A stretch of 64,000 bases of DNA from an uncultured virus (IMG/VR IMGVR_UViG_3300022552_000006) (IMGVR_UViG_3300022552_000006), one strand, 5' to 3'. Shown: positions 24,313 through 64,000, numbered from the stretch's first letter. A program made the numbers and translations. The notes: generated from the sequence alone by a model not told the origin.

Positions 24313-24349
24313 AGTGTTTTCTATGATAAAAATAAAAGAGAGGGATAAT

Positions 24350-27148: not shown

Positions 27149-27245
27149 GCGATGTTATGAATTTAAAAGAGTGTGCGTTTTGCAGAAAGTTTTGGGATGG
27201 AACATGCGACCTGAAAAATTGTATGGGATGGGAGGCGATGACAAG

Positions 27246-33449: not shown

Positions 33450-34088
33450 TTAAATACTTTTTGCCAATCGCTTCACGGTTGCCCAGTTATACCTTATGAT
33501 ATTACACTTTCTTTTTTCTCGCAATTTCTGTTTTACAAATTCAATTGTCTTTGGATCTCCCGGGTTACCAGAGCCAAAATCCCCATATTTCTTTTTCAGG
33601 TTTTCATATTCTTTTATCGACAGGCTTTTTCCAATTATGCTGGCTGCACCAACTGGAATATCTCTTGTTTCGTTTTCATGGTCTATAACCCACTTAGACC
33701 AGTCAAAATGGAAGCCAAGCTTCTCTGCCCTTTCAATAAATTTTTCCCTCGAATAGTCGAAGTTGTTGATTTGAACTTGGGCAATAGGGTATTTTGCCTC
33801 AAACTCCCTGACAATTGTGCAGAAGGCGTTACATTCCATATCGTTTAAATTGTATTGTTTGTTCGATTTGCTTATTTCAGGCGCCTTAATGTAAATGGCT
33901 TTGTAGTCCTCGACTATGTCCTGAATTACTGGCGTTATTTTCATTATTTTAGAATGAGTTAACAGTTTGCTGTCCCTGACTCCGATGCGTTGCAAGGCCT
34001 CAAGCATATTCTCCTTGACGACAACTCCTGTCACGATTAAACTGCCAATCACAGGGCATCGTGTTACATCATCTATTCCAATAATCAT
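33450..34088 (-). CDS. rnhB: Ribonuclease HII homologue with divergent active site
   Basis: IGIDD.TR.PVIG, GVRDSK.L, VGAASI..K and GDFGSG.P.DP.T motifs. Confidence 0.85.
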   Translation of the reverse strand: MIIGIDDVTRCPVIGSLIVTGVVVKENMLEALQRIGVRDSKLLTHSKIMKITPVIQDIVEDYKAIYIKAPEISKSNKQYNLNDMECNAFCTIVREFEAKYPIAQVQINNFDYSREKFIERAEKLGFHFDWSKWVIDHENETRDIPVGAASIIGKSLSIKEYENLKKKYGDFGSGNPGDPKTIEFVKQKLREKRKCNIIRYNWATVKRLAKSI

Positions 34089-40499: not shown

Positions 40500-41354
40500 T
40501 CACCTCACAAACCTTATGAATTTCGGAAACCTCATAACCCCGTTCTTGCTCAACTCCTGAAACTCGACTTCGACAAATCGGGGCTTATAATCATAAAAGT
40601 ATTTTTGGCTCTCGGCTCTCGGAACGGTAACCCTGCCAAGTTTGGTTATAAGGTTCAAAACAGGAACAGAAAGGCACAGGTTCTTCTGTGGGCGTGATTT
40701 ACTCTGCGTGTCGTATCCAAGAATCTCAAGCGTCTCGGTGAAGTGCTTTTTGCATTTAAGCCAATCGTTGCTTCTCTTCTGCACATATTTTGAATCCCTG
40801 TTTTTCGCCATAACTCCCTCGTAGCCGTTTTTCAAAAACTGCTCAAAGAGTTTTTGTGGCTCTTCCTCAAACTGCTCTACAACTCCTATGGTTCGGTTCG
40901 GAATTATGCTTTTTTCAAGCATTTTTCTCCTTTTCCATAGGGGGTATTGCGTCAAATCCCTGCCGTTAAGTGAGAGAACGTCAAAGGCAACAAATTGGGC
41001 AGGATACATCTCGGACATCAGTTTAATTCTCATTCTGTCGGCTACGTGAGTCCTGCTCATAAGAATATCAAACCCCTCGTCAACAACCATCTCGCCGTCA
41101 AGAATTATGCTCCTGACATTCGGCTCTAAAATCCTTTCAAACAGTTCAAGGTTAAATTCGGGAAACTGCTCACGGCTCACAACCTGAAACACATTTAAGC
41201 GTGAGTTTCGCCTCTTCAAAACAAATTCACCCGTATCCAAATTTACCAAAAACAAATTTCGGCTTCCGTCATACTTCGGCTCAAAGACATAGTTCTCAAG
41301 ATTCTTCAAGTCCTCGTATGAAATCCTGTTCGCCAACATAGGTTTTTCTATCAT
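40500..41354 (-). CDS. Minimal ATP-dependent DNA ligase (LigD-LIG/LigC-like)
   Basis: KPMLA, EPKYDG.R, LDGE, AFDVL, EGVMAK, WLKCK and RFP.F motifs. Confidence 0.92.
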   Translation of the reverse strand: MIEKPMLANRISYEDLKNLENYVFEPKYDGSRNLFLVNLDTGEFVLKRRNSRLNVFQVVSREQFPEFNLELFERILEPNVRSIILDGEMVVDEGFDILMSRTHVADRMRIKLMSEMYPAQFVAFDVLSLNGRDLTQYPLWKRRKMLEKSIIPNRTIGVVEQFEEEPQKLFEQFLKNGYEGVMAKNRDSKYVQKRSNDWLKCKKHFTETLEILGYDTQSKSRPQKNLCLSVPVLNLITKLGRVTVPRAESQKYFYDYKPRFVEVEFQELSKNGVMRFPKFIRFVR

Positions 41355-47516: not shown

Positions 47517-48911
47517 TTGATGCGGACGCTGGAAGATATTTTTCAGGGGGAAGACGAGCAGCAGTTTCTCCTTGACTGCCGATTTGATTTCGGCAAGTGG
47601 GTTACGCGCGTTCTTGGATACGATTACAAATGGTTTCACCGCGAGTGGATAGAGGCGCTTCTTTCAAAAAAGCGAATCGCTATCCTCGCGCCTACCGGCT
47701 TCGGCAAAACCACGATTCTTGGCATAGCATACCCGCTCTGGAACCTCTTTTATAAGAAATACTGGCAGGGGTTGATTGTCTCTAATTCCATACCGCAGGC
47801 CACCAAGATTATTGACAGGCTTAAGATGGCGATGCAGGAGAATGAACTTCTTCAGCGCCTCGTTCCCGAATATTCAAACCTGACCTGGAGCAAGACCGAA
47901 ATTGCCACATCCACCAAAGGCAGAATTTTCTGTAAGCCGTATGGCGAGAGCGCGAAAGGTGTCCATGTTAATTATGTTCTTGGCGACGAGGTGTCCTCAT
48001 ACCGCGACCATTCTATATGGTTCAGGTATATTGTTACGCGGGCAACCGCAAAGCGTGGGGAAGTTGCCGCAATCTCCACACCGGTTGACGAAAACGACTT
48101 GATGATGTCCAAGCTTATGCGTAGCCCGTATTACTGGCACAAAAGCTATCCTGCCATACAGAATAATAAGTCTATCTGGCCCGAGAGATTCCCGCTTGAA
48201 TGGCTCAAGCAAGAGGAAGCTGAATTGGGGAAGTCACACTTTGCCCAGCAATATCTCTGTAAGATAATTCCCGAATCGGAAGAGATTCCATTCCCAACGC
48301 GGCTTCTTGTACAGGCTCACAGTCTCAAATATCAGTTTATGGATAGGCGCCCCGAAGGCGATACCGATCCATATTATGTCGGATGCGATTTTGCTATGTC
48401 ACTCAAAGGCGACTGGTCTGCATTTGTCGTCGGCAAGAAGCGGGATGACAACAAGATTCAAGTTGTCAAAATATTCAGGTTTCGTGGCATGCTTCCGTCC
48501 GCCCAGACCGAAGTCTTGAAGAGCATTAACCGCGATTTCCAGCCCAACAGAATGCTTCTGGACAAGTCAACTTTCGGCGAGTTCATCGTCAACGATCTCA
48601 TCTCTGAAGGCATACCCGCAGTCGGCTTCCCGTTCACGCAGGAAAACAGGAACTCCGCATTTGCCAAAGCTATAACACTTTTAAATGAAGGAAACATAAT
48701 ATTGCCATACAGCAAGGAACCGACATATACATCGCAGATGATTGACCGCCTTGAGCATGAGCTGACGCATTTTGTTGTTGACAAGACACCGAGAGGATAT
48801 GCAACATACAAAAGTTTGGCAGACCACGATGATGTTGCAATCGCGTTCATTCTGATGCTCAAGGCGGCGGCTGAAGAAAGAAAGTTTATATCCTATATAA
48901 GGGCGAGGTAA
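47517..48911 (+). CDS. terL: Terminase large subunit
   Basis: APTGFGKT, VLGDE, ISTP, WPERF, YVGCDFA and HDD.A.A motifs. Confidence 0.95.
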   Translation: MMRTLEDIFQGEDEQQFLLDCRFDFGKWVTRVLGYDYKWFHREWIEALLSKKRIAILAPTGFGKTTILGIAYPLWNLFYKKYWQGLIVSNSIPQATKIIDRLKMAMQENELLQRLVPEYSNLTWSKTEIATSTKGRIFCKPYGESAKGVHVNYVLGDEVSSYRDHSIWFRYIVTRATAKRGEVAAISTPVDENDLMMSKLMRSPYYWHKSYPAIQNNKSIWPERFPLEWLKQEEAELGKSHFAQQYLCKIIPESEEIPFPTRLLVQAHSLKYQFMDRRPEGDTDPYYVGCDFAMSLKGDWSAFVVGKKRDDNKIQVVKIFRFRGMLPSAQTEVLKSINRDFQPNRMLLDKSTFGEFIVNDLISEGIPAVGFPFTQENRNSAFAKAITLLNEGNIILPYSKEPTYTSQMIDRLEHELTHFVVDKTPRGYATYKSLADHDDVAIAFILMLKAAAEERKFISYIRAR

Positions 48912-49272
48912 ATGGAAGAAATCACATACAAACAATTTAAAAAATGTATGGAAAGTTTAATCGAATCGCATATGGAAGAATTAAAATATGAGATGCAAGA
49001 CTATATGCAGTATATGACACCAGACATTTATGAGCGAATTCAGAATACTGTAAAAATCATAGATGAAAATGAAGATATATTAAGAGAAGGCGAAAGGCAC
49101 AAAGATGATGCACTGTTTTTCATACAAAATAATTTGCCGACGTATCGGATTATTGGGCGAGAGCTTAAGAGAAGGCATGAAAACAAGAAAAAGGAAAGCG
49201 ATTTTTCCTATGCATGAGTAACAAAAGCGTAAGCGGAAAACTTTATTAATTTGCTTTAACAAATATTATTGA

Positions 49273-50580
49273 TTGTATATGACTTTGCTCGATTCTTTTA
49301 GGCGTGTCTTTAACCTTTCTTCCAGCAATAAGACTGTCCAAACGCTTGGAATGAAAAGCGTGGGCGAGACAACTTTAACATTTAAGAGCGGCGAGGAGCA
49401 GCTAAAGCGGGTAAATCCAATTGACTTGGAAACCATTTATATTAGGGAAGGCATGGTCTACAACTGGATAAATAAGTTTGTTGAGTCTTTTCTTGCCTGC
49501 GATTTTCGTGTTAACACATCAAATGAGCGCGAAAGGAAAATCATGGAAGAGTTTCTGCGTGCTTCCAATTTTCGCAACCTTTTGAAAACAACTGTCCAGC
49601 ATATGCTTGTGTATGGCAATGCTTTCTGGGAAAAAATTACAAACGGCGGGACTAAGCTTCTTGCAGTTGATTGGATAGATCCCAAGACAATGGATGTTAA
49701 GAGAACTCCGATGGGAAAAGTAATTTATGCGCAAGATGGAAAACCTGAAGCTTATGTTCAATATGTCAAATGGAATGTGGATACATCTAAAATCCCGAAA
49801 GAGAGGCAAGTAAATCAAACTGCTATGTTTCCTGAGACGCAGAGCGGGAAAGGCATCCTTCTTAAGAGGGAAGAAGTTGTTCAGTTTCCGTATAATACAA
49901 TCGGAGATTCTTGGTGGGGTGTCGGACTTATTGAACCCATCTATAATATTATCAGGGTTAAGCAAAATGCGGAAGCCGGATATGCAGAAGCGATTCAGCG
50001 TGTAGCGTATCCACGCATCTGGGTTAAAGTTGGAGACGATCAGCATCCTCCGACACCAGAGCAGATTGATGATGTGTGGAACCAGCTCAAGGGTTTGGAA
50101 ACGAAGCATCAGTTTGTTTCTCCATATTTTTATGAGCCAGTTATTCTTGAGTCAAAGCGCGTGGAAAAGCTGGCTGACAACCTAAAATATTTCTCTGATC
50201 AAATTGTTGCCGGGCTTGGAGGTCCTAAACCATTTATAACTGGTTTGGGAACAGACACCAATAAGGCAACCTTAAATGACCAGAAAATTCTTTTTGAGAG
50301 GCAGCTCAAGGCCTTACAAGAGCAAATTAGCCAAATAATTGAGCGCGAAGTTTTCGCAGTTTTAGCAAAGCAATATAGATTTCGTTCTGTCCCGACTCTT
50401 GTTTGGGAAGAAATATCTACAGAAAGTTTGGATAGCAAAGCAGACAGGCTGGTAAAATATGTGAATGCTGGTTTACTGAATCCAGACAAAGATATCAGAA
50501 ATATAATAAGAACTTCTGAGAGATTACCTGAAGAGAGCGGCAACAGTCAGGAGGTTGGGGCAGATGGTGAATCTAAATAA
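49273..50580 (+). CDS. Portal protein
   Basis: LVYGNAFWE, IDPKTM and WWGVG.IEP motifs; follows terL; 435 aa. Confidence 0.9.
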   Translation: MYMTLLDSFRRVFNLSSSNKTVQTLGMKSVGETTLTFKSGEEQLKRVNPIDLETIYIREGMVYNWINKFVESFLACDFRVNTSNERERKIMEEFLRASNFRNLLKTTVQHMLVYGNAFWEKITNGGTKLLAVDWIDPKTMDVKRTPMGKVIYAQDGKPEAYVQYVKWNVDTSKIPKERQVNQTAMFPETQSGKGILLKREEVVQFPYNTIGDSWWGVGLIEPIYNIIRVKQNAEAGYAEAIQRVAYPRIWVKVGDDQHPPTPEQIDDVWNQLKGLETKHQFVSPYFYEPVILESKRVEKLADNLKYFSDQIVAGLGGPKPFITGLGTDTNKATLNDQKILFERQLKALQEQISQIIEREVFAVLAKQYRFRSVPTLVWEEISTESLDSKADRLVKYVNAGLLNPDKDIRNIIRTSERLPEESGNSQEVGADGESK

Positions 50581-51010
50581 GCTCAAAAAATTGACGCGTG
50601 ACCTTGATAGCATTACGCAGGACTTTGCACGCGAAATGGAATATGAAGCGCTTTTTCTCGAATCAAAAGGCAAAACTCCCATATTTAATTTTATGAAACA
50701 AATTTTTGACAATGTTAAGTCATGTGTTTTTATTGTCAGCAAAGATTGTAAAATTTTGTATGCCAATCCTATGAGCATTAAACTGGCTAACAAATTTGGT
50801 GGAAAAGCAAAGATTGGTAATTTTTGTATAAGATTTTGGAGTGGAAAGACAAAATGTAAAATGAAAAATTGTCCATTAAAAAGGGCTATGAATTCTAAAA
50901 GAATGTTAATTGATAAAATAAATTATAGGGGAGATAATTTTGAGATAGTGTCAATTCCATTATATGATAATGGAACTACATCTGTATTGGTTATTGCTAA
51001 CAAGTTGTAG
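50555..51010 (+). CDS. Stand-alone PAS-domain protein
   Basis: FDNV..CVFIVSKD.KILYAN...IG..C...C...CP......FEIVSIPL.D. Confidence 0.75.
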   Translation: MGQMVNLNKLKKLTRDLDSITQDFAREMEYEALFLESKGKTPIFNFMKQIFDNVKSCVFIVSKDCKILYANPMSIKLANKFGGKAKIGNFCIRFWSGKTKCKMKNCPLKRAMNSKRMLIDKINYRGDNFEIVSIPLYDNGTTSVLVIANKL

Positions 51011-51021
51011 AGGTTGGTAGG

Positions 51022-51252
51022 ATGTCTAAGACAGATGAATGGAGACTGAAACAAATGGAATGGCGTGGCTATACTGTAAAGGCTTTGGAAGATATGAACA
51101 ATGAATTGAAAGAAATTAAACATGAGTTAAAAGACACGAACAAAAAAATTGACAGATTAAACAATGCGCTTGGGCGAGTACAGATAAAAGTTGCTGGAAT
51201 AGGAGCTACTGTGGCCATTCTTGTTTCAATCATACTGCATATTATGTGGTGA
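51022..51252 (+). CDS. Coiled-coil protein with C-terminal TM helix (XhlA/holin-like)
   Basis: Heptad repeat followed by VAGIGATVAILVSIIL. Confidence 0.55.
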   Translation: MSKTDEWRLKQMEWRGYTVKALEDMNNELKEIKHELKDTNKKIDRLNNALGRVQIKVAGIGATVAILVSIILHIMW

Positions 51253-53132
51253 GAAAAATGAAATTATTGATGCTGGGAACAGGTCCAACAAATCCTGTTG
51301 TGGGGAAGGGAAAGGATAATCGTAGGAATAGCTCGATGCTTCTGACCACAAGGAACGGGACAACTGTGCTTTTTGACTGCACGCCACAGTTTTATGAGCA
51401 AATGCAGACATTTGCGCCGGACACCAATAAAATCGATTATATTGTTTTCAGTCATGGTCATTCTGATGCGATTGGAGGCATACCTCAGTTAAAATACTGG
51501 TTAAAGGAAAAAAAACAAGAGAAAGCTCCGATAGCATATATGCAAAAAGAAACAGAATTTCGCATAAAAGAGCGGTTTAAGGACTTGTCTCATATGGATA
51601 TAAGAAATTTCAAGCCGTATGAAATATTGAATCTCGAACACCTTAAGATTGTACCATTTAAGGTTATTCACGCCGAAGCATTCCCTACTGGAAACAAGTT
51701 TCCTACAGTGGGCTTCAGAATCGATAACAAGATAGTTTATGCAGAAGATATGGAATCTGTTCCAGATAAATCAATACCCTATTTTGAGAAGTCTAAAATT
51801 ATTATAATAGATGCTGCAATGTGGGATGACAAAAAAATAAGGGGGCATATGAATGTAAAGCAAGCTCTTGAATTCTGCAAGAAATTCAAAACACGTGAAA
51901 TTGTTTTGACGCAAGCAGGGCACACATATCCATCATATAATAAAGCGCAGAAAGAGATTGAAAAGATTTGGTCTGATATTGGCGGCGATAAGCGAACAAG
52001 CGTTACCCTTGCTTATGATGGAATGAGTCTTATAATAGCAGACAATTTTGAAAAAGTAAATGACTATCTGATTCAGATAAAGGAAGGGATTTACCTTGTT
52101 AAGCCGCACGCCGAGATGATATGGAAAGGAAACAAGAAGTATATAGTGAAAGCAAAAAAATATATGAAGATGATTGACAAGCTTCTCTACTTTTGCGACG
52201 ATGAATATGCTTATGGTATATTGCGTCTCAAAAAGCCTTTTCTCATAAATCTTGATGAATTCAATAATTTCAAGCCGCAACACCTTATAAGCAATGAAGA
52301 AAGGAAAAAATGGTGGGGCGGGAAGCGCTTTCTGTTTATGTATCCATTTGACATAATCGAGAAGTTCAAAAAGCCGAAAAAAATAAAGGTTCTGCCCGGG
52401 ACCCAAACATTCATTAAGGATGTCCAGTTTATGAGTGAGCTTTCTGAAATAGAAATGATAGAAGATGTTAATCAGTATGATCCATCAAAAGTCAATAGCA
52501 AAGCGTTGACCAACGATTGGCGAATAGTCTTAGCTTGGTATGCGACAAAAAAGCGTGGAGGCAACCTGAAGCATTCTTTCGATACAATCATAGGGCTTGC
52601 CAAAAAGATTTACGATGAGATTGTGAAAAGAGTTGAACGGGGCGACATGAAGCATATATTCAAGCCAGAAAAAATGACTCCATACGCGAAAGAGCTGTAC
52701 AATAGAGTTAAAAATATGAAAGTTAGTGAAAATAAGGAATACACCGCCTCAATTGACGAATTAACACCTCTTGTCAGTCAGTTTAAGGAATTTAAAATCA
52801 TAAAAGATTTTATATCGTTAGTTGGTTCGAATGTAAAACGAGAGGAGGGGCACATACCCAATGACATAGATTTGCATATTCGTATGCGCACCCCTCCCGA
52901 TTATATTAGAAGAGCAATCGAAGTTAGGTTGTTAAAAATGCTACCAAATGATATAGCAAATAAAATACATTTTATCTGGGGAGATCCTGAAGGTTCGCAT
53001 GACTCGTTTGTTCCGTTATATGACCTTGCCTTAGTTAAGTCTGACAGAAAAGTTGTTGAAATGGGAGAATTGAAAATCGGGCAAGCTATTGTTATCAATG
53101 GTAAAAGAGGTATAATAAAGGAGGTTAAATGA
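51246..53132 (+). CDS. Multidomain protein: MBL-fold hydrolase (PhnP/RNase Z-like), ASCH-like domain and pol-beta-type nucleotidyltransferase-like domain
   Basis: MLGTG, FDC.P, SHGHSDA and AYDGM (MBL); GIYLVKPHAEMIWKG.K (ASCH-like); SLVGS...NDIDLHIR (NTase GS/DxD). Confidence 0.75.
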   Translation: MVRKMKLLMLGTGPTNPVVGKGKDNRRNSSMLLTTRNGTTVLFDCTPQFYEQMQTFAPDTNKIDYIVFSHGHSDAIGGIPQLKYWLKEKKQEKAPIAYMQKETEFRIKERFKDLSHMDIRNFKPYEILNLEHLKIVPFKVIHAEAFPTGNKFPTVGFRIDNKIVYAEDMESVPDKSIPYFEKSKIIIIDAAMWDDKKIRGHMNVKQALEFCKKFKTREIVLTQAGHTYPSYNKAQKEIEKIWSDIGGDKRTSVTLAYDGMSLIIADNFEKVNDYLIQIKEGIYLVKPHAEMIWKGNKKYIVKAKKYMKMIDKLLYFCDDEYAYGILRLKKPFLINLDEFNNFKPQHLISNEERKKWWGGKRFLFMYPFDIIEKFKKPKKIKVLPGTQTFIKDVQFMSELSEIEMIEDVNQYDPSKVNSKALTNDWRIVLAWYATKKRGGNLKHSFDTIIGLAKKIYDEIVKRVERGDMKHIFKPEKMTPYAKELYNRVKNMKVSENKEYTASIDELTPLVSQFKEFKIIKDFISLVGSNVKREEGHIPNDIDLHIRMRTPPDYIRRAIEVRLLKMLPNDIANKIHFIWGDPEGSHDSFVPLYDLALVKSDRKVVEMGELKIGQAIVINGKRGIIKEVK

Positions 53133-55879
53133 TGTTTCTCAATGAATATGAAAAGAAAAAAAGAGAAATATTAGCGCAACTTGATAGTTTAGAAAGTCAG
53201 CTTCAGAAAAAAGAGCTGAAGTTGGCAACGCAAGAAACTCTTTGGATAACAGCTATCGAAGATAGGCTTAAGGCAATAGAAAATAAAATTAAAAGATTAA
53301 ATGAAATTGAGAAGTATGCTATTGAACCTACTTATGTCATCGAGTTCGAAGATGGCACCACTAAAGAGCTGACGAAAAAAGAAATCGAAGTGCTTGCCGA
53401 TACGACATCGCATGATGTTGGTAGCATCCAGCCAATTATTTGGGCTGTGGGAAAAAAAGTGAAAGCCAAAGGCAAGGTTGGCGTCATAAAAAAGAAAATA
53501 AAACAAAAAGGATATATAATACAGTTTGAAGATGGAGAGACAGAAGAAGTTGACGAAAAGGAGTTGGAAGAGTCTAATATAATCCCTCTAAAGCCTTTTT
53601 TACCTTCAGAAAGCAAAGTGTATAATGGTATCGAGAGCATAATAAAAGAGCTAAATCCTAACGAGGCTAATGTTTATTTTGTTGAGGAAAGACCGAAAGG
53701 CATTCGCTTGCTTTTGCATAAGGCTGGAAAAAACATTGAACTGTTTTTATCAAACAAAGAAAATGTGACAGATAAATATCCGGATATTGTGAAGCAGGCG
53801 CCAAACCTTACTGCAGAAGACATAATCCTTGATGGTGTTCTGGTCGGCAACAAATACAAGGTGTTTGACATATTGTATTATAAGAATCAGTCTTTAGATG
53901 ACATCAGGCTTTATGAGCGCAAAAAAGTTTTGAACTTACTCGAATTTACAGAGAACATAGTTAAGTCTCCATTTGTTGTTGTCAATTCTTCGGATCAGAT
54001 GATTAAGGCAGTTAAGCTATTCAGGGCTTTGCCTACCAGTGATGGTGTTCTTATTAGGGGCTATAATTCAACATATAAGTTAGGTTTTAATCAGTTTTGG
54101 TCTGTTTTTAGTCTCGAAGCCCAGCCAAAATTGTTTAAACCATATTTGCCTATGAAGCCACATGGTTCCGCTTATTATGATTTGAAAGAATGCATAAATG
54201 ATTTACAGAACGGAAAAAAATATTCATTTGAGTTCAAGTATAATGGATTTCACGCAGTAGCTCATAAGAAAGGGGAAGAAGTGAAAATATTTTCCGAGCA
54301 GAAAAAAGACATTTCTTCGGCATTTCCAACATTAATGGAAAATATCAAAAAGCTTGCGCCTAATCATGATTTTATAGTTGATGGGGAAATTGTTCCATAC
54401 TCTCCTGAAGGAAAAGCTCTTGGTAGAGACCCTTTGATGAAATTTATCGGCGCGGTGAAATCTGGGAAAAAGCTTGATGATTCATTAATTAAAATGCATG
54501 TTTTTGATATTACATATTTTGACAAGCCAATTATAGAAAAACCGTTACATGAAAGGCAGCTTGTTCTGGATAAGCTCAAGTTCAATGACAGAGTTGAAAG
54601 GGTTTTGTATAAAATCGGTACAAAAGAGAATGCAGAAAAATTGATTAACTGGGCTACACGGCAAGATGGGAGCGAAGGTTGCGTGATAAAGGATTTGGAT
54701 TCGCCTTATGTATTTGGCGAAAAATCAAAAGCATGGATAAAGTTCAGACATCTGGTTGACATTCATGCTGTCGTGCTAAAGAAAGTCGAAAAGGAAAGGA
54801 ATTTATTCAATTACCTTGTTGGAATATATGTTTCTCAGGAGGATGCGAAAAAGCTTCATCCAGATTACATTCAAGATTTTAACGGAAAAAAAGTCTTGGT
54901 TCTTGGTCATACATTTAACACAAGTGAAGAAGTTTCTCCTGGAACAATTATAGATGTTGCCTTAGAAGATGTGTGGCGCCATACTTATCCTGAAATAAAT
55001 AAAGTCAGATATTCGATACACAAGCCAAGATTTAGGCAAACAAGACCAGACTTGAAGAAAACATCATCTATTCAAGACTTGGAAGATATTGTCACCAGCA
55101 TTGGTGAAGAAGTAATTGTGGAAAAGGAAGAGCTGAAAGAAAAATCTTGGGAAGATGTTCTCAAAAAGGGCGAAGGCGAAGGTGGAGATTTTGAAACAAG
55201 ATACGAAGCGGCAGTTAAGTTTTGGGATGCAAACTGGTATAAAAGCTTTCCAAAATCAGGCAAGGGAGTATTTATTTACCATCATCATTATAGAGGGCTG
55301 ACTGAAGACGAATCTAAGATGAGTGAAGAGGAGCTTCTTGATACGGATAACTCTGTTCATGGCGATCTCAGGTGCCAGAAAGACGACAAATCACTATGGG
55401 GGTTTACAATTTTTACTGGTAGCACAAAAGATTTGAAAAAAGCAGGTGGCTGTAGGTTGTGTGAGCTTGAAGGAAACGAAAAGATGCAAGGCACATTCAA
55501 GTTGTTAGAGCCGCTTGCGTGGGCAAAAGTTGGATTAAAAAAGCCTTATGTTTCGGAGCCAGAAGGCGTAGGCGCAACCAAAAATTACTATGCGAAATTT
55601 TTCGCAGTTGATCACGGCACCTATGATATGGGAGTTTGGAGAAAGCATAGTTTTGAAATATTTTTACATGGGAAAAAACTAAAGGGGCGTTATATAATTC
55701 AGTTCGCTCCTGTTGGTGGGCGTCGCGTCTGGCTTATTTCTCATCCGGAAGACCAGACTCCTTATGCAGATTCGCACAAGCTTGAAGATGTTATCAAAGA
55801 ATTGAAAGCGAAAAAGCAAGAATGGCTCGTCTGGGCAAAGCCCGGTGTTAAGCCTAAACTAATTCATATTGGTGATTAA
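53129..55879 (+). CDS. Multidomain ATP-dependent ligase: SH3-like repeats, degenerate ligase domain, intact ligase plus OB domain, LigD 3'-phosphoesterase-like domain
   Basis: Domain 1 EERPKG.R/LDG/VFDIL/DG lacks the adenylated Lys; domain 2 EFKYNG/VDGE/VFDI/EGCVIK/WIK; C-terminal HHH.R...HGDLR...FLHGKKLKGRY. Confidence 0.85.
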   Translation: MMFLNEYEKKKREILAQLDSLESQLQKKELKLATQETLWITAIEDRLKAIENKIKRLNEIEKYAIEPTYVIEFEDGTTKELTKKEIEVLADTTSHDVGSIQPIIWAVGKKVKAKGKVGVIKKKIKQKGYIIQFEDGETEEVDEKELEESNIIPLKPFLPSESKVYNGIESIIKELNPNEANVYFVEERPKGIRLLLHKAGKNIELFLSNKENVTDKYPDIVKQAPNLTAEDIILDGVLVGNKYKVFDILYYKNQSLDDIRLYERKKVLNLLEFTENIVKSPFVVVNSSDQMIKAVKLFRALPTSDGVLIRGYNSTYKLGFNQFWSVFSLEAQPKLFKPYLPMKPHGSAYYDLKECINDLQNGKKYSFEFKYNGFHAVAHKKGEEVKIFSEQKKDISSAFPTLMENIKKLAPNHDFIVDGEIVPYSPEGKALGRDPLMKFIGAVKSGKKLDDSLIKMHVFDITYFDKPIIEKPLHERQLVLDKLKFNDRVERVLYKIGTKENAEKLINWATRQDGSEGCVIKDLDSPYVFGEKSKAWIKFRHLVDIHAVVLKKVEKERNLFNYLVGIYVSQEDAKKLHPDYIQDFNGKKVLVLGHTFNTSEEVSPGTIIDVALEDVWRHTYPEINKVRYSIHKPRFRQTRPDLKKTSSIQDLEDIVTSIGEEVIVEKEELKEKSWEDVLKKGEGEGGDFETRYEAAVKFWDANWYKSFPKSGKGVFIYHHHYRGLTEDESKMSEEELLDTDNSVHGDLRCQKDDKSLWGFTIFTGSTKDLKKAGGCRLCELEGNEKMQGTFKLLEPLAWAKVGLKKPYVSEPEGVGATKNYYAKFFAVDHGTYDMGVWRKHSFEIFLHGKKLKGRYIIQFAPVGGRRVWLISHPEDQTPYADSHKLEDVIKELKAKKQEWLVWAKPGVKPKLIHIGD

Positions 55880-55880
55880 T

Positions 55881-56027
55881 TTGGCATATCCGCGCATCTC
55901 TATTGAAAAAATTCAGATGATAGTAGAATTGACCAAAAAAGGCGAGAGCAGAAAACAGATAGCGCGCATGGTGAAATGCAGTACATCTACTGTATATTCT
56001 TACCAGAAAGAATATGGTCTGTTATAG
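55881..56027 (+). CDS. 48-aa HTH protein (below ORF-track cutoff)
   Basis: TTG start after GGTGA; KGESRKQIARMVKCSTSTVYSY. Confidence 0.65.
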   Translation: MAYPRISIEKIQMIVELTKKGESRKQIARMVKCSTSTVYSYQKEYGLL

Positions 56028-56086: not shown

Positions 56087-57226
56087 ATGAAAGAAGACAA
56101 TTTACAAGAAATTTTTGAGCATCCTGTAGTACAAGAGTTAGTTAATAAAGCATATAAAGACTTGGATTCAGAGGTTAAGTTGCCATTCATTCTGAAAGAC
56201 AAAATATTGATGTCTCCTGGCGTGTGGAACAACTTTTACTACAGCCCTAAGACAATTGAAACCATTTTTAAGAAAACAAACTGGGATGATGTAAAAGTAA
56301 GGGCACTTTTTTTAGACCACATTGATGACAGGGCTGCCGAATGGATTGGAGAAGTTATGAACCCAAGACTCGAAAATGGTAATATAGTTGGAGACTTGGC
56401 AATATTAGACAAGCCGACTGCAATAAAACTGGCGTATGGCGCCAAGTTTGGAATTTCTCCAAAGGTAGTTGGAGAAGCAGACTATAACAAAAGGATGTAT
56501 GATGGATACTTCGAAAATTTCTCTGTCGTGATCAATCCCGCTGTTAAGACAACATTTCTTAACAGCGAAATAAAAATCAAAAATAAAGGAGGAGAGAATA
56601 TGCCTAAGACAAAGGAAGAAATTTTAGAAGAAGAGTCTTCTAAAGTATCTGAAGAAACACCGAAAAAAGAAGAAACACCAAAAGAAGAGCCAAAGACAGA
56701 AACCAAAGTAACTGAAAATGTCGAAGAACTTGCAGAAAAAATAGCAGAAATACTTGCAAAAAAGAAATACCCATACCCAAAAGCAGATGAAGAGCTGAAG
56801 AAAAAGAAATATCCATATCCAGAGAAAATGGAAGAAGAAATCAAAAAGCTCAAAGAAGAAATAGAAGAACTCAAAAAGAAGAAATATCCATATCCAGAGA
56901 AAATGAGTGAAACTGAGCAAGAGCTTTCAGCTTACACAGATTTTATCAAAGAATATCTCAAGAAGCATCCAGGAGCGACAATAAAGGAAGCTGCAAAAGC
57001 TTGGGGAAAGGAGCACAACGAGCTTGAGGAATCAAAGTCAAGCGTAACCGTAGAAGACTTGCAGACTCAGATAGGTGAAATAGTAACACAGAAAATGTCA
57101 GAATTTGGCGTAAAGCCAATAAGAATTGCTCAGAAGTTCATAGATCCAAATAGCGAAGCTAATATAAATGCTTCAGAACTTGATTTGGCAATGTTCAATA
57201 TGATTAAGGAGGGGATTGGAGTATGA
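56087..57226 (+). CDS. Prohead protease-scaffold fusion
   Basis: PGVWN, FLDH, FGISP and FSVV.NPAV protease-like N-half; E/K-rich C-half; TTTATAAA about 25 nt upstream of ATG 56087; immediately precedes the capsid gene. Confidence 0.8.
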   Translation: MKEDNLQEIFEHPVVQELVNKAYKDLDSEVKLPFILKDKILMSPGVWNNFYYSPKTIETIFKKTNWDDVKVRALFLDHIDDRAAEWIGEVMNPRLENGNIVGDLAILDKPTAIKLAYGAKFGISPKVVGEADYNKRMYDGYFENFSVVINPAVKTTFLNSEIKIKNKGGENMPKTKEEILEEESSKVSEETPKKEETPKEEPKTETKVTENVEELAEKIAEILAKKKYPYPKADEELKKKKYPYPEKMEEEIKKLKEEIEELKKKKYPYPEKMSETEQELSAYTDFIKEYLKKHPGATIKEAAKAWGKEHNELEESKSSVTVEDLQTQIGEIVTQKMSEFGVKPIRIAQKFIDPNSEANINASELDLAMFNMIKEGIGV

Positions 57227-58233
57227 GAACTATACAAGAGCTTGCTGATACAACCACTTCTCACAACACAGACCTTCTCGCAAAGAGATGGCTAAACACC
57301 ATAGTAGATTCAGCAAAGAAAAAGATGTTCTTTTTGGACATCGTTAGCCAGTATGATATGCCTCCAGGCACCCAGAGCATAGTAATACCTTACAGAAAAG
57401 GTTACTTTAGCACTCTTGGGACTTCAGTAACAGACACAACCACAGAAGGTAATTCAGTTACATTCACCACAATGAACAACCTTGAAGGTCTTACTTTAAC
57501 ACCTTCACCACATGCATATGGTGTAGCAATATCCAACAACGCTGTGAGAACTACAGCAGTTAACCTTATACAGGCTGCCAGAGAAGAGCTTACAGACTAT
57601 TGGGCAGATGTAGTTGACAAGGCAATTGCCGCTGCAATAAATGGAGCTCCAGTTGCAACATCATCGGCAAAAGGAGCTTCTGAATTGTTTGGTGGAGATG
57701 CTTCGTCAACATCTACATTGGAATCTGGAGATATTCTAACACCATCACTTATAGTGAAGGCCAAAAGCAGACTACAAGGTACAACGATGTATTACTGGGA
57801 CAGCGGTTCAGAATCAAAATCATCACAGAGTAAGGCACCTTGGTTCTCGGAGCCCGACAGCCCATTTGTAATGTACATAGGCCCAGAACAGGAATATGTA
57901 CTTTTGACTGATAGTCAGTTTACGAATGCGGCAGAATATGGTGGCAACGAGATTGTGCTTAACGGCGAAATAGGAAAATATCAGGGTGTTAAAATAATAA
58001 CTTCAGTAAATACCACATCAGCAACAAACTGGGGTGGTGGCAGTTTAGCTGGTCACAACTGTTACATGGTCAAGGCTCGCGTATCTGCAGCTTTAGCATG
58101 GGGACAGAGACCAAGATTGAGGATATTTGAGTATCCAAGTGACCTTGAAACCAGAATAATACTTGAACAAGCATACGCAACAGACTCTTTGCACAACGAC
58201 TCGATTTGTCATGTGAAAGTCGCTGACGAGTAA
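57223..58233 (+). CDS. Major capsid protein (HK97 fold, N4-gp56-like)
   Basis: FVMYI.P.Q...L..DSQF..A..YG and NGEIG.Y.GV.I motifs; position after the scaffold. Confidence 0.88.
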   Translation: MRTIQELADTTTSHNTDLLAKRWLNTIVDSAKKKMFFLDIVSQYDMPPGTQSIVIPYRKGYFSTLGTSVTDTTTEGNSVTFTTMNNLEGLTLTPSPHAYGVAISNNAVRTTAVNLIQAAREELTDYWADVVDKAIAAAINGAPVATSSAKGASELFGGDASSTSTLESGDILTPSLIVKAKSRLQGTTMYYWDSGSESKSSQSKAPWFSEPDSPFVMYIGPEQEYVLLTDSQFTNAAEYGGNEIVLNGEIGKYQGVKIITSVNTTSATNWGGGSLAGHNCYMVKARVSAALAWGQRPRLRIFEYPSDLETRIILEQAYATDSLHNDSICHVKVADE

Positions 58234-60058: not shown

Positions 60059-63000
60059 ATGGTTAAATACAGAAGAGTTTATTATGATAGCGTTAAGAAA
60101 TATGGCTTAAAGATTGGCATCACTTCAATTCCTGTTGTTTTTCTTCTTTTTATGCTTCTTGCCCAAAGAGGAGATATTACTATAACAGGATATTCTGGGG
60201 ACATGGTCTGTGCAGGGACGGAATTAGATCCCTGCTATGCTTACATTAACTTCACAGCCAACACGGACATTTATATTTATCCCAACGAGAATTGGACATT
60301 CAGCACGAACCCGCCAGTGAGGAAAGTTATCCTGCAAAGGAGCTGGCGGGATTCTTGGAGGACAATAAACCTGAGCAAGCCGTGGAATAAGAATGTGAAA
60401 TACGCCATAAAATTTAGCAAAGGAAAAAGCTATCAGATTAGATTTATTGGATACAAATATTATCCTTATGATGACATTAAATGGGGATTCGGGGACATAG
60501 ACCCCGTTTGGTATGGTGATAAATGGATTTCTCCATCATGGTCTAAAGAGATAAAGGAAGTGGTAGAATACAACAACGGAACGAGAGCAGTAGTAGATTT
60601 TGACAATATTAATTTTGCCGATATAGATAGAGCTGGATTATGGTTAGGAGACGAAAAGAAGAACATAGCAGGATTTGATAAGTCACACGGGCAGATAATA
60701 TTGTATCCTAAAGGATATGACAAGCCACCAGTTAATTTGTTTGTCAGGATACATGCGACAAAAGGAGCAAGCACTTACACTAAATGGCTAACAAGCAACA
60801 AAGGAAAACCGTATTGGAACGAGAAGATACTGGATGACGGAGCCACGCAGAAAGAATTAGGATATTATACAAACTTGACATATAACATATTTACGTTCCC
60901 CTGTTCTATTGGCATTAGAGGAGACACCCACCACGAGAAATGGAAGATACCGATAAATGTTTCAACACCGATAGATTTGGATGATATTTCGGTGGAATAT
61001 ATATTCGCTGTAAATCCAGATTCGGCAAAGAAAATGAAGTATGTGAGAGTAGTCGGGAAAAACGGTAGCGAGCAATACAGATTAAACAAGCTTATAGACA
61101 AATCCGGAGAGATTACACATAATTTTTATTTCTTGGATGAAAATAATAATACGATTTCATTTGTAGATTTTGAAAAGGAATTTAACCTTTCAAACTCTCA
61201 AGAGTGGAAGATAAAAAGAGTCACGCTCCCAAATGGGCAGTTCGTGTATGTCTTGTCGATTAGATTCAGCTTCGGAAGTTTGGATATGGACGAAGTGTTA
61301 AGTCTCAATGCCGATTGGACGACTCCGAGCAGCGTGGAGAGTTACAGTTCCCAGAGCTCTTTAGATACTGCAAGTAAGTCGATAGACGATTCCACTTCGA
61401 GTTATTGGGATGAAAATATTGGTAATGATAAAGATGGTCCGACTTACGAGTGGTATATCACATACGATATGGGGGACACCTACACGATTTCGAAGATAAG
61501 AATCTATGCAGATGGCGATGAGAGTTATAATCCTTGTAAAGTAGGAATCATAAAAGTCTGTGACGACCCTGACTGTAATGGAGAATCTAATTTGTTAAGT
61601 TCTGCATGTTCATTTTCTACTAAAAAAGAATGGCAGGAATGTTCATTTACGGCTACTTCAGGAAGGTATATCGAAGTTCGAGGAGGAATACGTCAGCCGT
61701 TTGGTGACTGTGTTAATAAAATTAATTATTTTTATACTCAAGATTTTTACGAGTTCGACGCCTATGTCGAGAGCGGGGACACATCTCCACCATCATTCTC
61801 AAACTGGCAACAGCAACCGCCAGATTTGAACTCAAGTTCTTTGGGAAAGTTATATATAAATGTCACGATAACGGACGATTCTGGAGTCAATGAATCTTCC
61901 GTAAAATTCTATCATTGGATAAATGATTCACAATATCCAGACCAACCTTGGTGCTTCTTAAATGGAACTGCTGGGGATTTCGAACACGAGCATACTATGA
62001 CCAACACTTCGTCTGTATTCAACATAACTCTGCACACTTACGCATACAACCCGTCAACGCATAATGTCCACCCAGAAACGATGAGGTCGGCAACGAAATA
62101 CAATTATAGCTTGGATTCAAATAACAAGGCATTAAAAGTCAGGTTTTACAACATTTCAACTCATCCGAATACAACTTTTGTCCTAAAGCCAAGGCTATAC
62201 AGAAATTCCGGGAATTTGTTGATTTATTATTGTAACAGCTCTTATACGACTGGCAAGGTATACAATTCTGATTATTGTATCCCTATAGCGACACTAACTT
62301 CTCAAGAAGACACAAACTACCAGAATACATATTTCTATGGGGATGAAAATTCTCTTTTAGATGGTATTAAGATTACATCAACGGGATACATAGTGTTTTA
62401 TGCGGAGGTAGGTTCGGACTGGGAAGTTGCTTACGCCAACATAGATTCAAACTCGGTTGAAACGACAGGAAATGGTGGAACATCTTGGACTAATCAAGAT
62501 TATTCAGCAGATACTTGGTTAATACAACTTAACGGAAATGGGCTAACTACCGTTGGATACAAAGTTTACGCTTGCGATAATGTAGGAAACTGCGATAATT
62601 CAACAGTCCAAAAGGACACCTATGCCATACATAATTTTGCACCTTCGCCAGCACCAGAAATATTAGTTCCTGAAAATTCAACTTATTCTGGAATTTTTAA
62701 CATAACTTGGACAGCGTCAAAAGACCCGAACAGCGACCCATTCAACTACTCAATATACTTATATCATTCTAATAATACTTTAGCTGCAATATTGGCAGAC
62801 AACAACATAACCGAAGGAACTGAATATTACACATTCGATTCGACAGGTTATCCAAACGGACAGTATTATTTAATGGCAAATGCCACAGATGATGTAGGTA
62901 ACACGAACTTCTACATTATGCCATATTATTTCACATTAGATAATAACCCACCGTTTTGGTCAGACAATTCCACGAATTCAACATTAGCAGGAAGCCCAAT

Positions 63001-64000
63001 ATTACATTCTTTAAAGTGGTATGATAATGATGGTCTAAGCGGTTATATTTTCAGTTTCTACAACGGAAGCAACACAACTTCTTGCGACGGGACTTTGGAC
63101 TGCTCTGGACTAAGCTCCGCCCAATGTCAGGCATGTTCTCAATGTTCTTACACGGCAGAAAATTGTAGCGGAACGCCCAATTCTTGCGATTCATACTCAA
63201 GCCAAAGCGACTGCGAACTTTGCGGTTGCACTTGGAGTGGCGGGGGAGGGAGCTATAACACCTATACACCAGACGATAATGACTTTGTCTGTACATTAAG
63301 AGCATCAGGAGGGGATTACTCTAAAATTAATGATTGGAGAAGTGCAATAGCATGCGATTTAACAGATTCCAGCACAAAGATATTCACGGTTTCAGATAGA
63401 GGTAATTATGATTCAAGTGACGATGGAAAAACGGTTACATTTTCAGGGGGAGGAACAGGAACTTTAAAACACATAAGCACATTTAACAAAGCTTTAATCG
63501 TAAGTTGTAGTGGAACTATAAATACTGGAACTGTAACTATAAGTTCAGGACATACGTTTACAATTTCAGATACAGGGCAACAAGTAGGGGATGTTGTTTT
63601 AAGTCTTTATAACGATTGGGCAAACGGTTATGATGAAGGCAGTGCTTATATAGACATTAAAAATTTTGTGACGGATGCTAATCATAAAGTAGTGATATGG
63701 ACAAACGCAAGTGCGTCTGGGACTCAAGGCCCGAACAGGCATAATGGAACTGCAGAAAGTGGATTTTTCGTTAATGAAACAGGCAGTAGTTACACTTTTG
63801 TTTTTAGAATATCTCATGTTCTTGTAGAAGGAATAGAAATTCAGCAACCTTCAAAACCTTCTATGGGAGTTTTCTATATGGATAGTGGATTAAATAATAC
63901 ATTTAGGAATTTACTAATACATAATGTCGGGGGAATTGTTTATCATGGGGAAGCTTCAACAATAGAAAATTCTATAATCTACGATTTTGGAAGTTCGGGA
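60059..64000 (+). CDS. Very large membrane-anchored or secreted multidomain protein, 3'-truncated by the window (missed by the ORF track)
   Basis: ATG at 60059, frame open to the window end; N-terminal hydrophobic helix (GITSIPVVFLLFMLLA), discoidin/F5-8-like segment (WYITYDMG...SGRYIEV), Ig-like and Cys-rich segments, many N-x-S/T sequons. Confidence 0.8.
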   Translation, partial: MVKYRRVYYDSVKKYGLKIGITSIPVVFLLFMLLAQRGDITITGYSGDMVCAGTELDPCYAYINFTANTDIYIYPNENWTFSTNPPVRKVILQRSWRDSWRTINLSKPWNKNVKYAIKFSKGKSYQIRFIGYKYYPYDDIKWGFGDIDPVWYGDKWISPSWSKEIKEVVEYNNGTRAVVDFDNINFADIDRAGLWLGDEKKNIAGFDKSHGQIILYPKGYDKPPVNLFVRIHATKGASTYTKWLTSNKGKPYWNEKILDDGATQKELGYYTNLTYNIFTFPCSIGIRGDTHHEKWKIPINVSTPIDLDDISVEYIFAVNPDSAKKMKYVRVVGKNGSEQYRLNKLIDKSGEITHNFYFLDENNNTISFVDFEKEFNLSNSQEWKIKRVTLPNGQFVYVLSIRFSFGSLDMDEVLSLNADWTTPSSVESYSSQSSLDTASKSIDDSTSSYWDENIGNDKDGPTYEWYITYDMGDTYTISKIRIYADGDESYNPCKVGIIKVCDDPDCNGESNLLSSACSFSTKKEWQECSFTATSGRYIEVRGGIRQPFGDCVNKINYFYTQDFYEFDAYVESGDTSPPSFSNWQQQPPDLNSSSLGKLYINVTITDDSGVNESSVKFYHWINDSQYPDQPWCFLNGTAGDFEHEHTMTNTSSVFNITLHTYAYNPSTHNVHPETMRSATKYNYSLDSNNKALKVRFYNISTHPNTTFVLKPRLYRNSGNLLIYYCNSSYTTGKVYNSDYCIPIATLTSQEDTNYQNTYFYGDENSLLDGIKITSTGYIVFYAEVGSDWEVAYANIDSNSVETTGNGGTSWTNQDYSADTWLIQLNGNGLTTVGYKVYACDNVGNCDNSTVQKDTYAIHNFAPSPAPEILVPENSTYSGIFNITWTASKDPNSDPFNYSIYLYHSNNTLAAILADNNITEGTEYYTFDSTGYPNGQYYLMANATDDVGNTNFYIMPYYFTLDNNPPFWSDNSTNSTLAGSPILHSLKWYDNDGLSGYIFSFYNGSNTTSCDGTLDCSGLSSAQCQACSQCSYTAENCSGTPNSCDSYSSQSDCELCGCTWSGGGGSYNTYTPDDNDFVCTLRASGGDYSKINDWRSAIACDLTDSSTKIFTVSDRGNYDSSDDGKTVTFSGGGTGTLKHISTFNKALIVSCSGTINTGTVTISSGHTFTISDTGQQVGDVVLSLYNDWANGYDEGSAYIDIKNFVTDANHKVVIWTNASASGTQGPNRHNGTAESGFFVNETGSSYTFVFRISHVLVEGIEIQQPSKPSMGVFYMDSGLNNTFRNLLIHNVGGIVYHGEASTIENSIIYDFGSSG

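Follow-up and report, generated by a model that had tools for sequence, protein, structure and literature searches.

A split ligase-phosphoesterase module in the head-gene region of an uncultured virus: a candidate for packaged DNA end healing

The head-gene locus

The DNA analysed here, a stretch of 64,000 nucleotides referred to as the window, comes from an uncultured virus (IMG/VR IMGVR_UViG_3300022552_000006). Its + strand carries a head module at 47.5-58.2 kb, defined by the layout of open reading frames (ORFs), Pfam and PHROGs, in which five genes lie between the portal gene and a gene for a protease-like and scaffold-like protein. The two largest encode a 628-aa fusion of a metallo-beta-lactamase (MBL) hydrolase, an ASCH-like domain and a putative nucleotidyltransferase (NTase), and a 916-aa protein with two ligase domains and a tail resembling the 3'-phosphoesterase (PE) of LigD. 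Related viruses carry these domains in one chain at the same place, and the two ORFs appear to divide between them what is elsewhere a single multi-enzyme protein, widespread in the head-morphogenesis modules of tailed viruses. This protein is probably loaded into the procapsid and would serve the healing and sealing of viral DNA.

A first-pass annotation, made from the sequence alone, had placed five close or overlapping genes between the portal and a prohead protease. The ORF layout and the Pfam and PHROG matches of the portal bear this out, and the stretch between the portal and the protease- and scaffold-like gene is confirmed as first described (Table 1). Neighbouring genes of the head module are contiguous or overlap. 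The stop codon of the 628-aa ORF shares the sequence ATGA with the start of the 916-aa ORF, and a Shine-Dalgarno (SD) sequence, AAGGAGGT, lies 5 nt upstream. Because of this overlap and the SD, the split into two ORFs can be taken as real and the two look translationally coupled. A sequencing error as the cause of the split was set aside, given the SD and the ATGA junction and given that the IMG/VR record L004 (G001), a 29-kb fragment, has the identical split and an identical 916-aa protein.

Neither promoter-like sites (34 versus 29.0 +/- 4.4) nor terminator-like sites (11 versus 8.6 +/- 3.2) rise above the numbers found in shuffled sequences. No MuF model of Pfam or PHROGs matches any of the five ORFs. 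The possibility that the cassette replaces a MuF gene was set aside, since three relatives carry both genes.

Table 1. Features of the cassette, the flanking head genes and the Ku-ligase pair, in window coordinates
Feature	Position	Strand	Residues	Evidence
628-aa MBL-ASCH-nucleotidyltransferase fusion (NTase putative)	51246-53132	+		Pfam, folds, motif
MBL-fold hydrolase domain, PhnP-like	51246-52040	+	1-265	PF12706 E 9e-25; phrog_392 E 1.4e-18
ASCH-fold domain (modelled)	52041-52440	+	about 280-395	AlphaFold2 model and Foldseek
Helical linker and putative minimal Pol-beta-type nucleotidyltransferase domain	52441-53132	+		VGS...NDIDL motif
916-aa protein with dead (predicted) ligase, live ligase and PE	53129-55879	+		Pfam, BLASTP, fold match
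Coiled coil and two short Tudor/SH3-like repeats	53129-53575	+	first ~150	Pfam Tudor E 7e-5, below cut-off
Ligase nucleotidyltransferase domain, predicted dead	53576-54148	+	~150-340	BLASTP against live domain
Intact ATP-dependent DNA ligase, adenylation and putative OB domain	54149-55183	+	best at 354-539	PF01068 E 2.8e-42
LigD-type PE domain (modelled) and C-terminal extension	55184-55879	+		Profile, AlphaFold2, Foldseek
151-aa PAS-like protein	50555-51010	+		PAS_9 below cut-off, Atlas PAS clusters
76-aa coiled-coil protein, C-terminal hydrophobic helix	51022-51252	+		Translation
52-aa HTH_7 protein	55869-56027	+ (+1 frame)		PF02796 E 4e-8
416/379-aa protease-like and scaffold-like ORF, downstream boundary	55976/56087-57226	+		Atlas structure match
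Portal, upstream boundary of the cassette	49273-50580	+		PF04860 E 1.5e-16; PF06074 E 5e-15; phrog_9232 E 4e-30
101-aa ORF	48912-49217	+		ORF layout
TerL (large terminase)	47517-48911	+		PHROG 38, E 1e-46
Major capsid protein	57223-58233	+		phrog_1357 E 3.9e-13; phrog_334 E 3.8e-12
Ku, 258 aa	41501-42277	-		PF02735 E 5.5e-25; phrog_4873/phrog_114 for Ku-ligase pair
Small 284-aa ATP-dependent ligase adjoining Ku	40500-41354	-		PF01068 E 1.6e-33

The ligase-phosphoesterase protein

Pfam finds three stretches of ATP-dependent ligase in the 916-aa protein. The intact ligase has the motif I sequence EFKYNG with Lys370, which aligns to motif I of the solved ligases 4eq5 and 3gde, and the motif I lysine is kept in 21 of 22 family members, that is, in all those spanning motif I. 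The closest solved structures are replicative DNA ligases of archaea and eukaryotes (4eq5, E 3.9e-17; 3gde; 2cfm; human LIG1). The OB region (aa 545-650) is conserved in the family, aligning through ...HKPRF.. and with the ligase of the archaeal virus ANMV-1, and has no Pfam OB match.

The preceding ligase domain is similar to the live one (BLASTP E 2e-9, 23% identity) and, at E 1e-17 to 1e-6, to the ligase domains of relatives. In it Arg188 takes the place of Lys370 and Val that of the Glu of motif III, EG..K of motif IV reads DG..R, and the lysines of motifs IV/V are replaced; this copy is predicted to be inactive. The N-terminal ~150 aa of the protein have no homologue among 31 other loci by phmmer and seem lineage-specific.

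The tail was modelled by AlphaFold2 (AF2) with pLDDT 95.5 and pTM 0.91. All seven of its Foldseek matches at E<=0.001 are LigD PE structures (3p43, two chains of 3n9b, 3n9d, 3p4h, 5dmp and 2lj6), with TMt 0.57-0.78, and the next match has a probability of 0.16. When a profile of the tail is compared with the PDB, the top two are the Korarchaeum PE (3p43, E 6.1e-5) and the Methanosarcina PE (3p4h, E 3.7e-3), and the HMM alignment to the former pairs svHlDlR with klHYDFR. The tail has H720, R722, H744, D746 and R748; in 21 sequences H744, D746 and R748 are invariant and H720 is kept in at least 90%. We take this H..R..HxDxR pattern to be the LigD PE active site, with its metal- and phosphate-binding residues, as known from the Shuman laboratory. 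The Pfam model LigD_N was dropped as proof of a PE because it is too weak, and was replaced by the PDB profile and the fold search; among the loci of relatives described below, L018 and L019 reach E 1e-5 with this model, yet stay below its cut-off. As judged from the model, the PE fold of the tail is confirmed. The first-pass annotation had read the protein as a dead ligase domain, an intact ligase with EFKYNG and a LigD-type PE tail, and all three assignments hold up.

The MBL-ASCH-nucleotidyltransferase protein

A PDB search with the MBL domain of the 628-aa protein returns the PhnP-like structures 3py5 and 3md7 as closest (E 3e-11). Residues H70, H72, D74, H142, D189 and H201 are conserved among 12 aligned homologues. 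Membership of the domain in the Apyc1 family was set aside at 13.7 bits, against a cut-off of 50.

For aa 266-628, AF2 gave a model with an overall pLDDT of 79.9 and values of 85-98 in its first domain. For this part all nine Foldseek matches at E<=0.001 are either TTHA0113 (2dp9, E 4.4e-6, TMt 0.70) or the Zymomonas ASCH protein (ZmASCH, E 3e-5, prob 1.00), and the ASCH domains of YqfB and TRIP4 rank next. The Pfam ASCH model matches one of 16 relatives, at E 0.007. The modelled structure assigns aa ~280-395 to an ASCH/PUA-like beta-barrel fold.

The motif VGS...NDIDL stands in the last ~120 residues, with G, D and D invariant in 16/16 homologues; a third carboxylate was not identified. Pfam models found in these homologues are DUF6932 (three), DNA_pol_B_palm (three) and NTP_transf_2 (two). 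Against the PDB, the profile gives only marginal matches, namely MNT 5yep (E 0.045), HI0073 (E 0.32), ASFV Pol X (E 0.73) and kanamycin NTase (E 1.4), and Foldseek gives a weak match to AadA (E 0.086, prob 0.54). The region is thus consistent with a Pol-beta-type NTase, but marginally so. In the fusion of MBL, ASCH and NTase that had been proposed at first, the MBL domain and the ASCH fold are well founded, while for the NTase the motif stands and the profile matches are marginal. A separate conserved element after the motif, LHFIWGDPEGPHD..PLYDL, has a marginal profile match (E 0.12) to the rSAMD9 chain (9o0d), which may be due to chance.

Single-chain relatives in the same position

A database search with aa 340-916 of the ligase-PE protein retrieved 155 proteins at E<=1e-5, most of them 500-1600 aa long. 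Precomputed Pfam lists cover 120 of these, and among them the XkdF-type prohead protease PF14550 is found in about 45, MBL in about 22, uracil-DNA glycosylase (UDG) in about 20, the Apyc1-like model PF23023 in about 16, LigD_N in 9, Dam methylase in about 8 and HTH_7 in 5. A scan of IMG/VR gave 31 loci, from which the window's own record (L004) and the near-duplicates L025 and L032 were removed, leaving 28. The central ORF has a ligase domain in 28/28 of these loci, an N-terminal MBL in 10 and a Dam methylase in 5, and in 6 the protease PF14550 stands at the extreme C-terminus. Fusion partners in relatives also include weak, short matches to the Pyr_excise model, and a weak match to an RNA_ligase model occurs in 5/22 family members.

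In relatives the domains lie in one chain of 500-1900 aa (the longest has 1914 aa), usually in the order MBL, ASCH, NTase, ligase, OB and PE, sometimes followed by an HTH domain or the protease. Residues 266-628 of the window's 628-aa protein are homologous by phmmer to the middle of such chains (L023, E 6e-94; L012, E 1e-93; L014, E 2e-88). From these alignments the ORF pair is best described as a split form of the single-chain relatives, with an extra dead ligase domain.

For synteny, 76 neighbour proteins were scanned with PHROGs. Taking the nearest upstream ORF of at least 250 aa, which 26 loci have, this is a portal in 16 and a MuF-like minor head protein in 3. In a phmmer search with the window portal, portals homologous to it turn up ahead of the big ligase gene at related loci. 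Downstream, in the 26 loci where a downstream ORF was tested, one of the next two genes encodes a major capsid or head protein in 22; no such gene was found downstream in L013, L015, L021 and L023, two of which are cut by the contig end. The linkage to head genes, which the first-pass annotation had proposed to survey, is therefore real, and it extends to ANMV-1 (KP703175.1), a virus of uncultured archaea, in which the gene directly after the portal (PF06381, E 3e-22) encodes an 866-aa ligase-PE protein (AJP62006.1).

In the public annotation of ANMV-1 (L002 in our scan), the gene at 1913-3193 is named 'MutT-like phage hydrolase'. The portal model PF06381 recognises it (E 3.2e-22) while hydrolase models do not, so the name seems wrong. 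As a counterpart of the 628-aa protein this supposed hydrolase was rejected, because the best BLASTP match has E 1.2, meaning no similarity, and the gene is the portal. A different arrangement is seen at 3525-5969 of L009, where a 761-aa ligase protein is followed by an 814-aa protein with an N-terminal MBL, a centrally placed PE-like tail (aa 263-482, E 2e-80 to the window tail) and a protease/capsid-like C-terminus (phrog_4523, E 2e-7).

The family is large: counted as clusters at 50% identity among 1.84 billion representatives, the matches of the tail profile number 1443 at E<=0.001, of which 1203 reach E<=1e-10 and 450 reach E<=1e-30. Named members come from metagenome-assembled genomes labelled Bacillota (3) and Anaerolineales (1). 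A scan of GTDB genome contigs with the ligase-PE alignment gave 208 pattern matches, 0 of them confirmed, and hence no prophage hosts. For the window virus itself, its RNase HII has mainly archaea among its named cellular relatives (Odin-, Thor- and Bathyarchaeota, Methanomethylicota, Woesearchaeota, Thermoprotei and Nanoarchaeia), besides two Patescibacteria, and the PAS clusters nearest to the 151-aa protein are from Thermoplasmatota. Both hint at an archaeal host, as a lead only.

Small genes and the protease-like neighbour

The 151-aa protein had been called a PAS protein. Pfam PAS_9 falls under its cut-off of 27 (E 7.8e-4, 20.1 bits), but the Atlas supports the label (score 0.97, TM 0.61-0.80, a PAS family or clan in 9 of the 10 best family-bearing matches), which stands as a lead. 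The next gene had been read as a transmembrane coiled coil, and the 76-aa translation is indeed a coiled coil ending in a hydrophobic helix, ...VQIKVAGIGATVAILVSIILHIMW; its PHROG matches are weak (phrog_2990, E 4e-5; 'hemolysin' phrog_937, E 0.008). Neither protein has a homologue in 31 related loci by phmmer, and both genes therefore look like lineage-specific additions.

The small helix-turn-helix (HTH) gene of the first-pass annotation is upheld by an HTH_7 match above the cut-off. A homologous HTH follows the big protein in 12/31 other loci, fused in frame in 4 of them (L007, L010, L013 and L017), and the HTH_7 gene belongs to the conserved unit. In the window this ORF is read in the +1 frame and shares 11 nt with the end of the 916-aa ORF; an SD is not evident, and homology begins upstream of its first ATG. 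Separate-frame HTHs elsewhere abut the stop codon of the polyprotein with an offset of +1 (L003, L005, L006, L014 and L016) or -1 (L011 and L012). Termination-reinitiation or a programmed frameshift could account for this arrangement.

Downstream lies the gene that had been labelled a prohead protease. The Atlas model of residues ~63-205 has TM 0.64-0.70 to Peptidase_S78, S77 and Mu-like protease clusters, and a His (LFLDH) and a Ser (GISPK) are invariant in 13/13 homologues, which hold the same position in 13 other related loci. On the other side, hhalign of the N-terminal domain of the 416-aa form against XkdF protease domains gives a probability of 0.35%, that is, no support, and its profile finds nothing in the PDB at E<=1. 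The C-terminal half is a scaffold-like coiled coil. The ORF is a probable protease-scaffold fusion, the protease label being plausible but not proven, and its true start is probably the ATG at 56087.

Other genes of the window

Ku and the 284-aa ligase beside it make up a second, separate end-joining pair, ~10 kb from the cassette. Further repair and replication genes, at 12905-15075 (-), 33450-34124 (-), 18190-18774 (+) and 37674-38834 (-), encode a Cas4-like PD-(D/E)XK exonuclease, an Mre11-like 'DNA repair exonuclease' (phrog_7339, E 4e-42), RNase HII, a protein resembling single-stranded-DNA-binding protein and a clamp-loader-like ATPase. Two DNA methyltransferases are encoded on the - strand at 8089-8721 and 15568-16608 (phrog_757, E 1.5e-62; C5 cytosine methylase PF00145, E 3e-87).

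Positions 23656-31027 (+) of this viral genome contain a series of genes for sugar-nucleotide enzymes and glycosyltransferases, with a UDP-GlcNAc 2-epimerase (E 8e-89), an FdtA-like isomerase, two NAD-dependent epimerases/reductases, a methyltransferase, GT2 and GT4. Two + strand frames run off the ends of the window and are probably tail-fibre or adhesin-like proteins: one of 1330 aa at 1-3993, open at the 5' end and matching Kelch and DUF2341, and one of 1314 aa at 60059-64000, incomplete at the 3' end, which has numerous N-x-S/T sequons and a galactose-binding-like domain.

A proposed packaged end-healing module

Why would a virus keep a DNA ligase and a phosphoesterase among its head genes? 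The reading that we favour, with a probability of roughly 0.55, is that they form a head-module protein for healing and sealing DNA ends, which is incorporated into the procapsid and works on the genome of the virus, most likely when the next host is entered. The MBL/ASCH/NTase and ligase/PE proteins would be made late, together with the head proteins, and would be incorporated into the procapsid, in relatives by covalent fusion to the prohead protease and in the window virus perhaps by way of the N-terminal coiled coil. The PE would remove 3'-phosphate or ribonucleotide blocks, the ATP-dependent ligase with its putative OB domain would seal the nick, and the putative minimal Pol-beta-type NTase may serve in place of the polymerase of LigD, which is of the archaeo-eukaryotic primase (AEP) type. 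The set is completed by the PhnP-like MBL as a putative phosphodiesterase, the ASCH fold as a putative nucleic-acid-binding domain, the duplicate ligase domain predicted to be dead, and the small HTH. Action on viral DNA would come most likely after ejection, when nicks or breaks left by damage or host nucleases could be cleaned and resealed.

The packaging, timing and substrates of the ligase-PE protein are what we infer here. The in-frame fusion to an XkdF-type prohead protease, in 6/28 loci and in many more proteins of the database list, is indirect support for virion loading. In relatives the module is a single giant chain, often fused to the protease, and therefore it is probably carried in the virus particle. 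The Dam and UDG fusion partners and the type of the ligase argue for DNA rather than RNA as substrate. By analogy, the module would be DNA-repair cargo of the 'polyvalent protein' kind. A more far-reaching version, tentative and on balance unlikely in our view, would have tailed viruses of archaea and bacteria load a LigD-like break-repair machine (NTase, PE and ligase, often with methylase, UDG and MBL) through a prohead-protease tether, eject it with the genome and reseal breaks made by restriction, CRISPR or nicking before viral genes are expressed. If true, this would be a general 'repair-based' counter-defence independent of host Ku.

Several points weigh against the packaged end-healing protein. 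No direct evidence for packaging, and no cultured virus, proteome or structure, was found for any family member. The window enzymes are not fused to the protease-like gene, in which neither Pfam nor PHROGs nor hhalign recognises a protease, and a capsid-targeting signal was not found in them. A ligase inside a capsid would have no ATP supply beyond pre-adenylation. Gene order could merely reflect late expression, and in 7/26 loci the nearest upstream ORF is of another or unrecognised kind, three of these seven having a portal one or two genes further up when searched with the window portal (L017, L033 and, weakly, L018/L019). Some domain assignments are also soft. Pfam LigD_N (PF13298) scores the window tail at only E 0.077 (13.6 bits, the cut-off being 31.1), and 1/22 family members have E<=0.01 with this model. 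The NTase call stems from a short motif and marginal PDB profile E-values (0.045-1.4), and the window's own sequence in that region matches no Pfam NTase model. In the MBL the last His of HxHxDH is replaced in 12/12 aligned homologues, the motif being HxHxD[A/C/V/E/T]; its chemistry is therefore uncertain, and rather than processing ends the domain could hydrolyse cyclic nucleotides in the manner of Apyc1.

How else could these genes be explained? The enzymes may clean and seal nicks in the concatemer within the producing cell, at or inside the procapsid, as quality control coupled to packaging and not for the benefit of the next host. The head-module synteny and the protease fusions fit such a role equally well, repair partners such as UDG and the weak, short Pyr_excise matches would help to prepare intact DNA, and no observation separates it from delivery to the next host. 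T4, according to the older literature, needs DNA ligase for encapsidation. We nevertheless regard it as improbable, for the virus has another ligase for replication-type tasks, and Dam and other methylases in the same chains suit the protection of incoming DNA, as proposed in the main text on polyvalent proteins (PMC5512222). Slightly harder to accept is that these are ordinary repair or replication enzymes, expressed late and left out of the virion, whose place among head genes is an accident of the operon, a moron-like insertion. The slot does accept insertions, seeing that the PAS-like, membrane and N-terminal parts of the window have no homologues in related loci; the window has no fusion to a structural protein, and the promoter and terminator scans are uninformative. 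Yet very divergent viruses retain the position, at identities as low as 24% and with the archaeal virus ANMV-1 among them, and a cytoplasmic enzyme would hardly be expected to become fused in frame to a prohead protease again and again.

Two further alternatives were considered. An RNA (tRNA) repair or anti-signalling kit, in which MBL and PE would open 2',3'-cyclic phosphates, the NTase rebuild 3' ends and the ligase seal RNA, or in which the MBL would degrade cyclic-nucleotide immune signals like Apyc1, draws on the PhnP-like nucleotide-binding proteins as nearest solved relatives of the MBL, on PF23023 and the weak RNA_ligase match in relatives, and on ASCH relatives that include an RNase and an ac4C amidohydrolase. 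It is a poor candidate nonetheless: a 5'-kinase is missing, the ligase, with its putative OB domain, has replicative DNA ligases of archaea and eukaryotes as its nearest relatives, Dam and UDG act on DNA, and the Apyc1 score of the window MBL is far below the cut-off. An anti-signalling role could apply to the MBL alone and leave the rest of the packaged end-healing reading unchanged. The resealing of tRNA, one of the functions first suggested, is thus unlikely for a ligase of the Lig1/archaeal DNA-ligase type with DNA enzymes as fusion partners. The other, circularisation of the genome, has been weakened, and we now rate it as very improbable. The ligase-PE protein and the viral Ku would join the ends of the incoming linear genome, as proposed for Corndog and Omega, where LigD comes from the host (PMC7719229, citing Pitcher et al. 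2006); the window does encode Ku and the module has LigD-like parts. However, Ku is found in 1/22 related records (that of L008) and in 0/3 of those rated as 100% complete, direct terminal repeats, which allow circularisation by recombination, occur in four related records, and the window Ku adjoins a different small ligase on the other strand, 10 kb away. The interpretation given in the first-pass annotation is, overall, partly supported. Of the grounds that it named for its own refutation, those open to checking do not apply: the tail has a PE fold, the NTase motif is conserved, and homologues are strongly linked to head genes. It had missed the split of one chain, Ku with the second ligase, and the published general design.

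If the packaged end-healing protein is indeed carried in the virion, it would represent a virion-borne set of DNA-repair enzymes, a counter-defence strategy so far undemonstrated, and would extend LigD-type end healing to archaeal and bacterial viruses without Ku. In any case, the family is large and conserved in position, and is a source of compact ligase-phosphoesterase enzymes for biochemistry.

Comparison with known systems

The closest parallels are bacterial LigD (POL-PE-LIG) with Ku and the stand-alone archaeal set of Methanocella for non-homologous end joining (NHEJ), comprising Ku, Lig, PE and Pol, which likewise combine an ATP-dependent ligase and a PE with a nucleotidyltransferase, the latter being putative in the window. 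The domain set of LigD is given as polymerase, phosphoesterase and ligase in the account of PMC7719229. The window PE model matches PEs of LigD and NHEJ systems (PaeLigD PE 3n9b, CkoPE 3p43, MbaPE 3p4h and Methanocella PE 5dmp), but differs from LigD PE in its insertions and a C-terminal extension of ~40 aa. In contrast to LigD, neither window ORF matches an AEP model, the minimal Pol-beta-type NTase standing in its stead if correctly assigned, and MBL, ASCH, dead-ligase and HTH parts are added in a viral head module. Ku is present in the window but not adjacent, and is absent from 21/22 related records. The mycobacteriophages Corndog and Omega are similar in that a virus-encoded Ku is linked to NHEJ-type ligase activity on which the virus depends (PMC7719229, citing Pitcher et al. 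2006). As described there, they borrow LigD from the host, whereas the window virus has its own ligases and its relatives mostly lack Ku.

Within the family, the 866-aa ligase of ANMV-1 aligns over ligase, putative OB and PE-like tail with window aa 370-884 (24% identity, E 1e-20) and directly follows the portal. It differs from the window in having no adjoining MBL, ASCH or NTase gene and in an extra C-terminal region of ~200 aa.

The first-pass annotation had not recognised the architecture as a characterised system. In the literature searched on XkdF with ligase, phage phosphoesterase-ligase and the ANMV-1 ligase, supplementary files being outside the search, no description of the module was found, and to this extent the claim stands; the general design, however, is in print. 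Phage polyvalent proteins with a C-terminal assemblin-like peptidase have been interpreted as cargo of the capsid that enters the cell together with the DNA (Iyer, Burroughs, Anand, de Souza, Aravind 2017; PMC5512222), and the recurrent in-frame protease fusions of the window's relatives, always C-terminal, agree with that account. In the main text of that paper, 'ligase' occurs 3 times, in a 2H phosphoesterase passage on RNA ligases and in references, 'LigD', 'UDG', 'ASCH' and 'XkdF' have 0 occurrences, and 'mbl' occurs once, as a Bacillus gene in a reference title. A jumbo-phage survey (PMC7824862) mentions XkdF, in the text searched, only as a head peptidase. What is new relative to these texts would be the class of DNA-ligase/PE cargo, to which the window adds a natural split form, a duplicated ligase domain predicted to be dead, and the co-occurrence of a viral Ku with a second ligase.

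Experimental precedents for enzymes made along with the head proteins and placed inside the head are T4 Alt, which acts early in the next infection, and P1 DdrB of the darA operon, which is processed and packaged in the head, as summarised in the main text of PMC5512222. P1 Dar proteins and T4 Alt are anti-restriction or host-modifying proteins, not ligases, and no sequence relationship to the window module is expected; their packaging has been demonstrated by experiment, whereas that of the window module is a prediction. The likeness to the polyvalent proteins of PMC5512222, as its main text presents them, lies in large multi-enzyme chains beside portal and terminase, and the window's relatives carry methylases and end in a prohead-type protease; the difference is that the window chain is split over two apparently coupled ORFs and is not fused to the protease. 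The family thereby lends itself to a clear test of whether polyvalent proteins tethered to a protease are carried in the capsid, as predicted in 2017.

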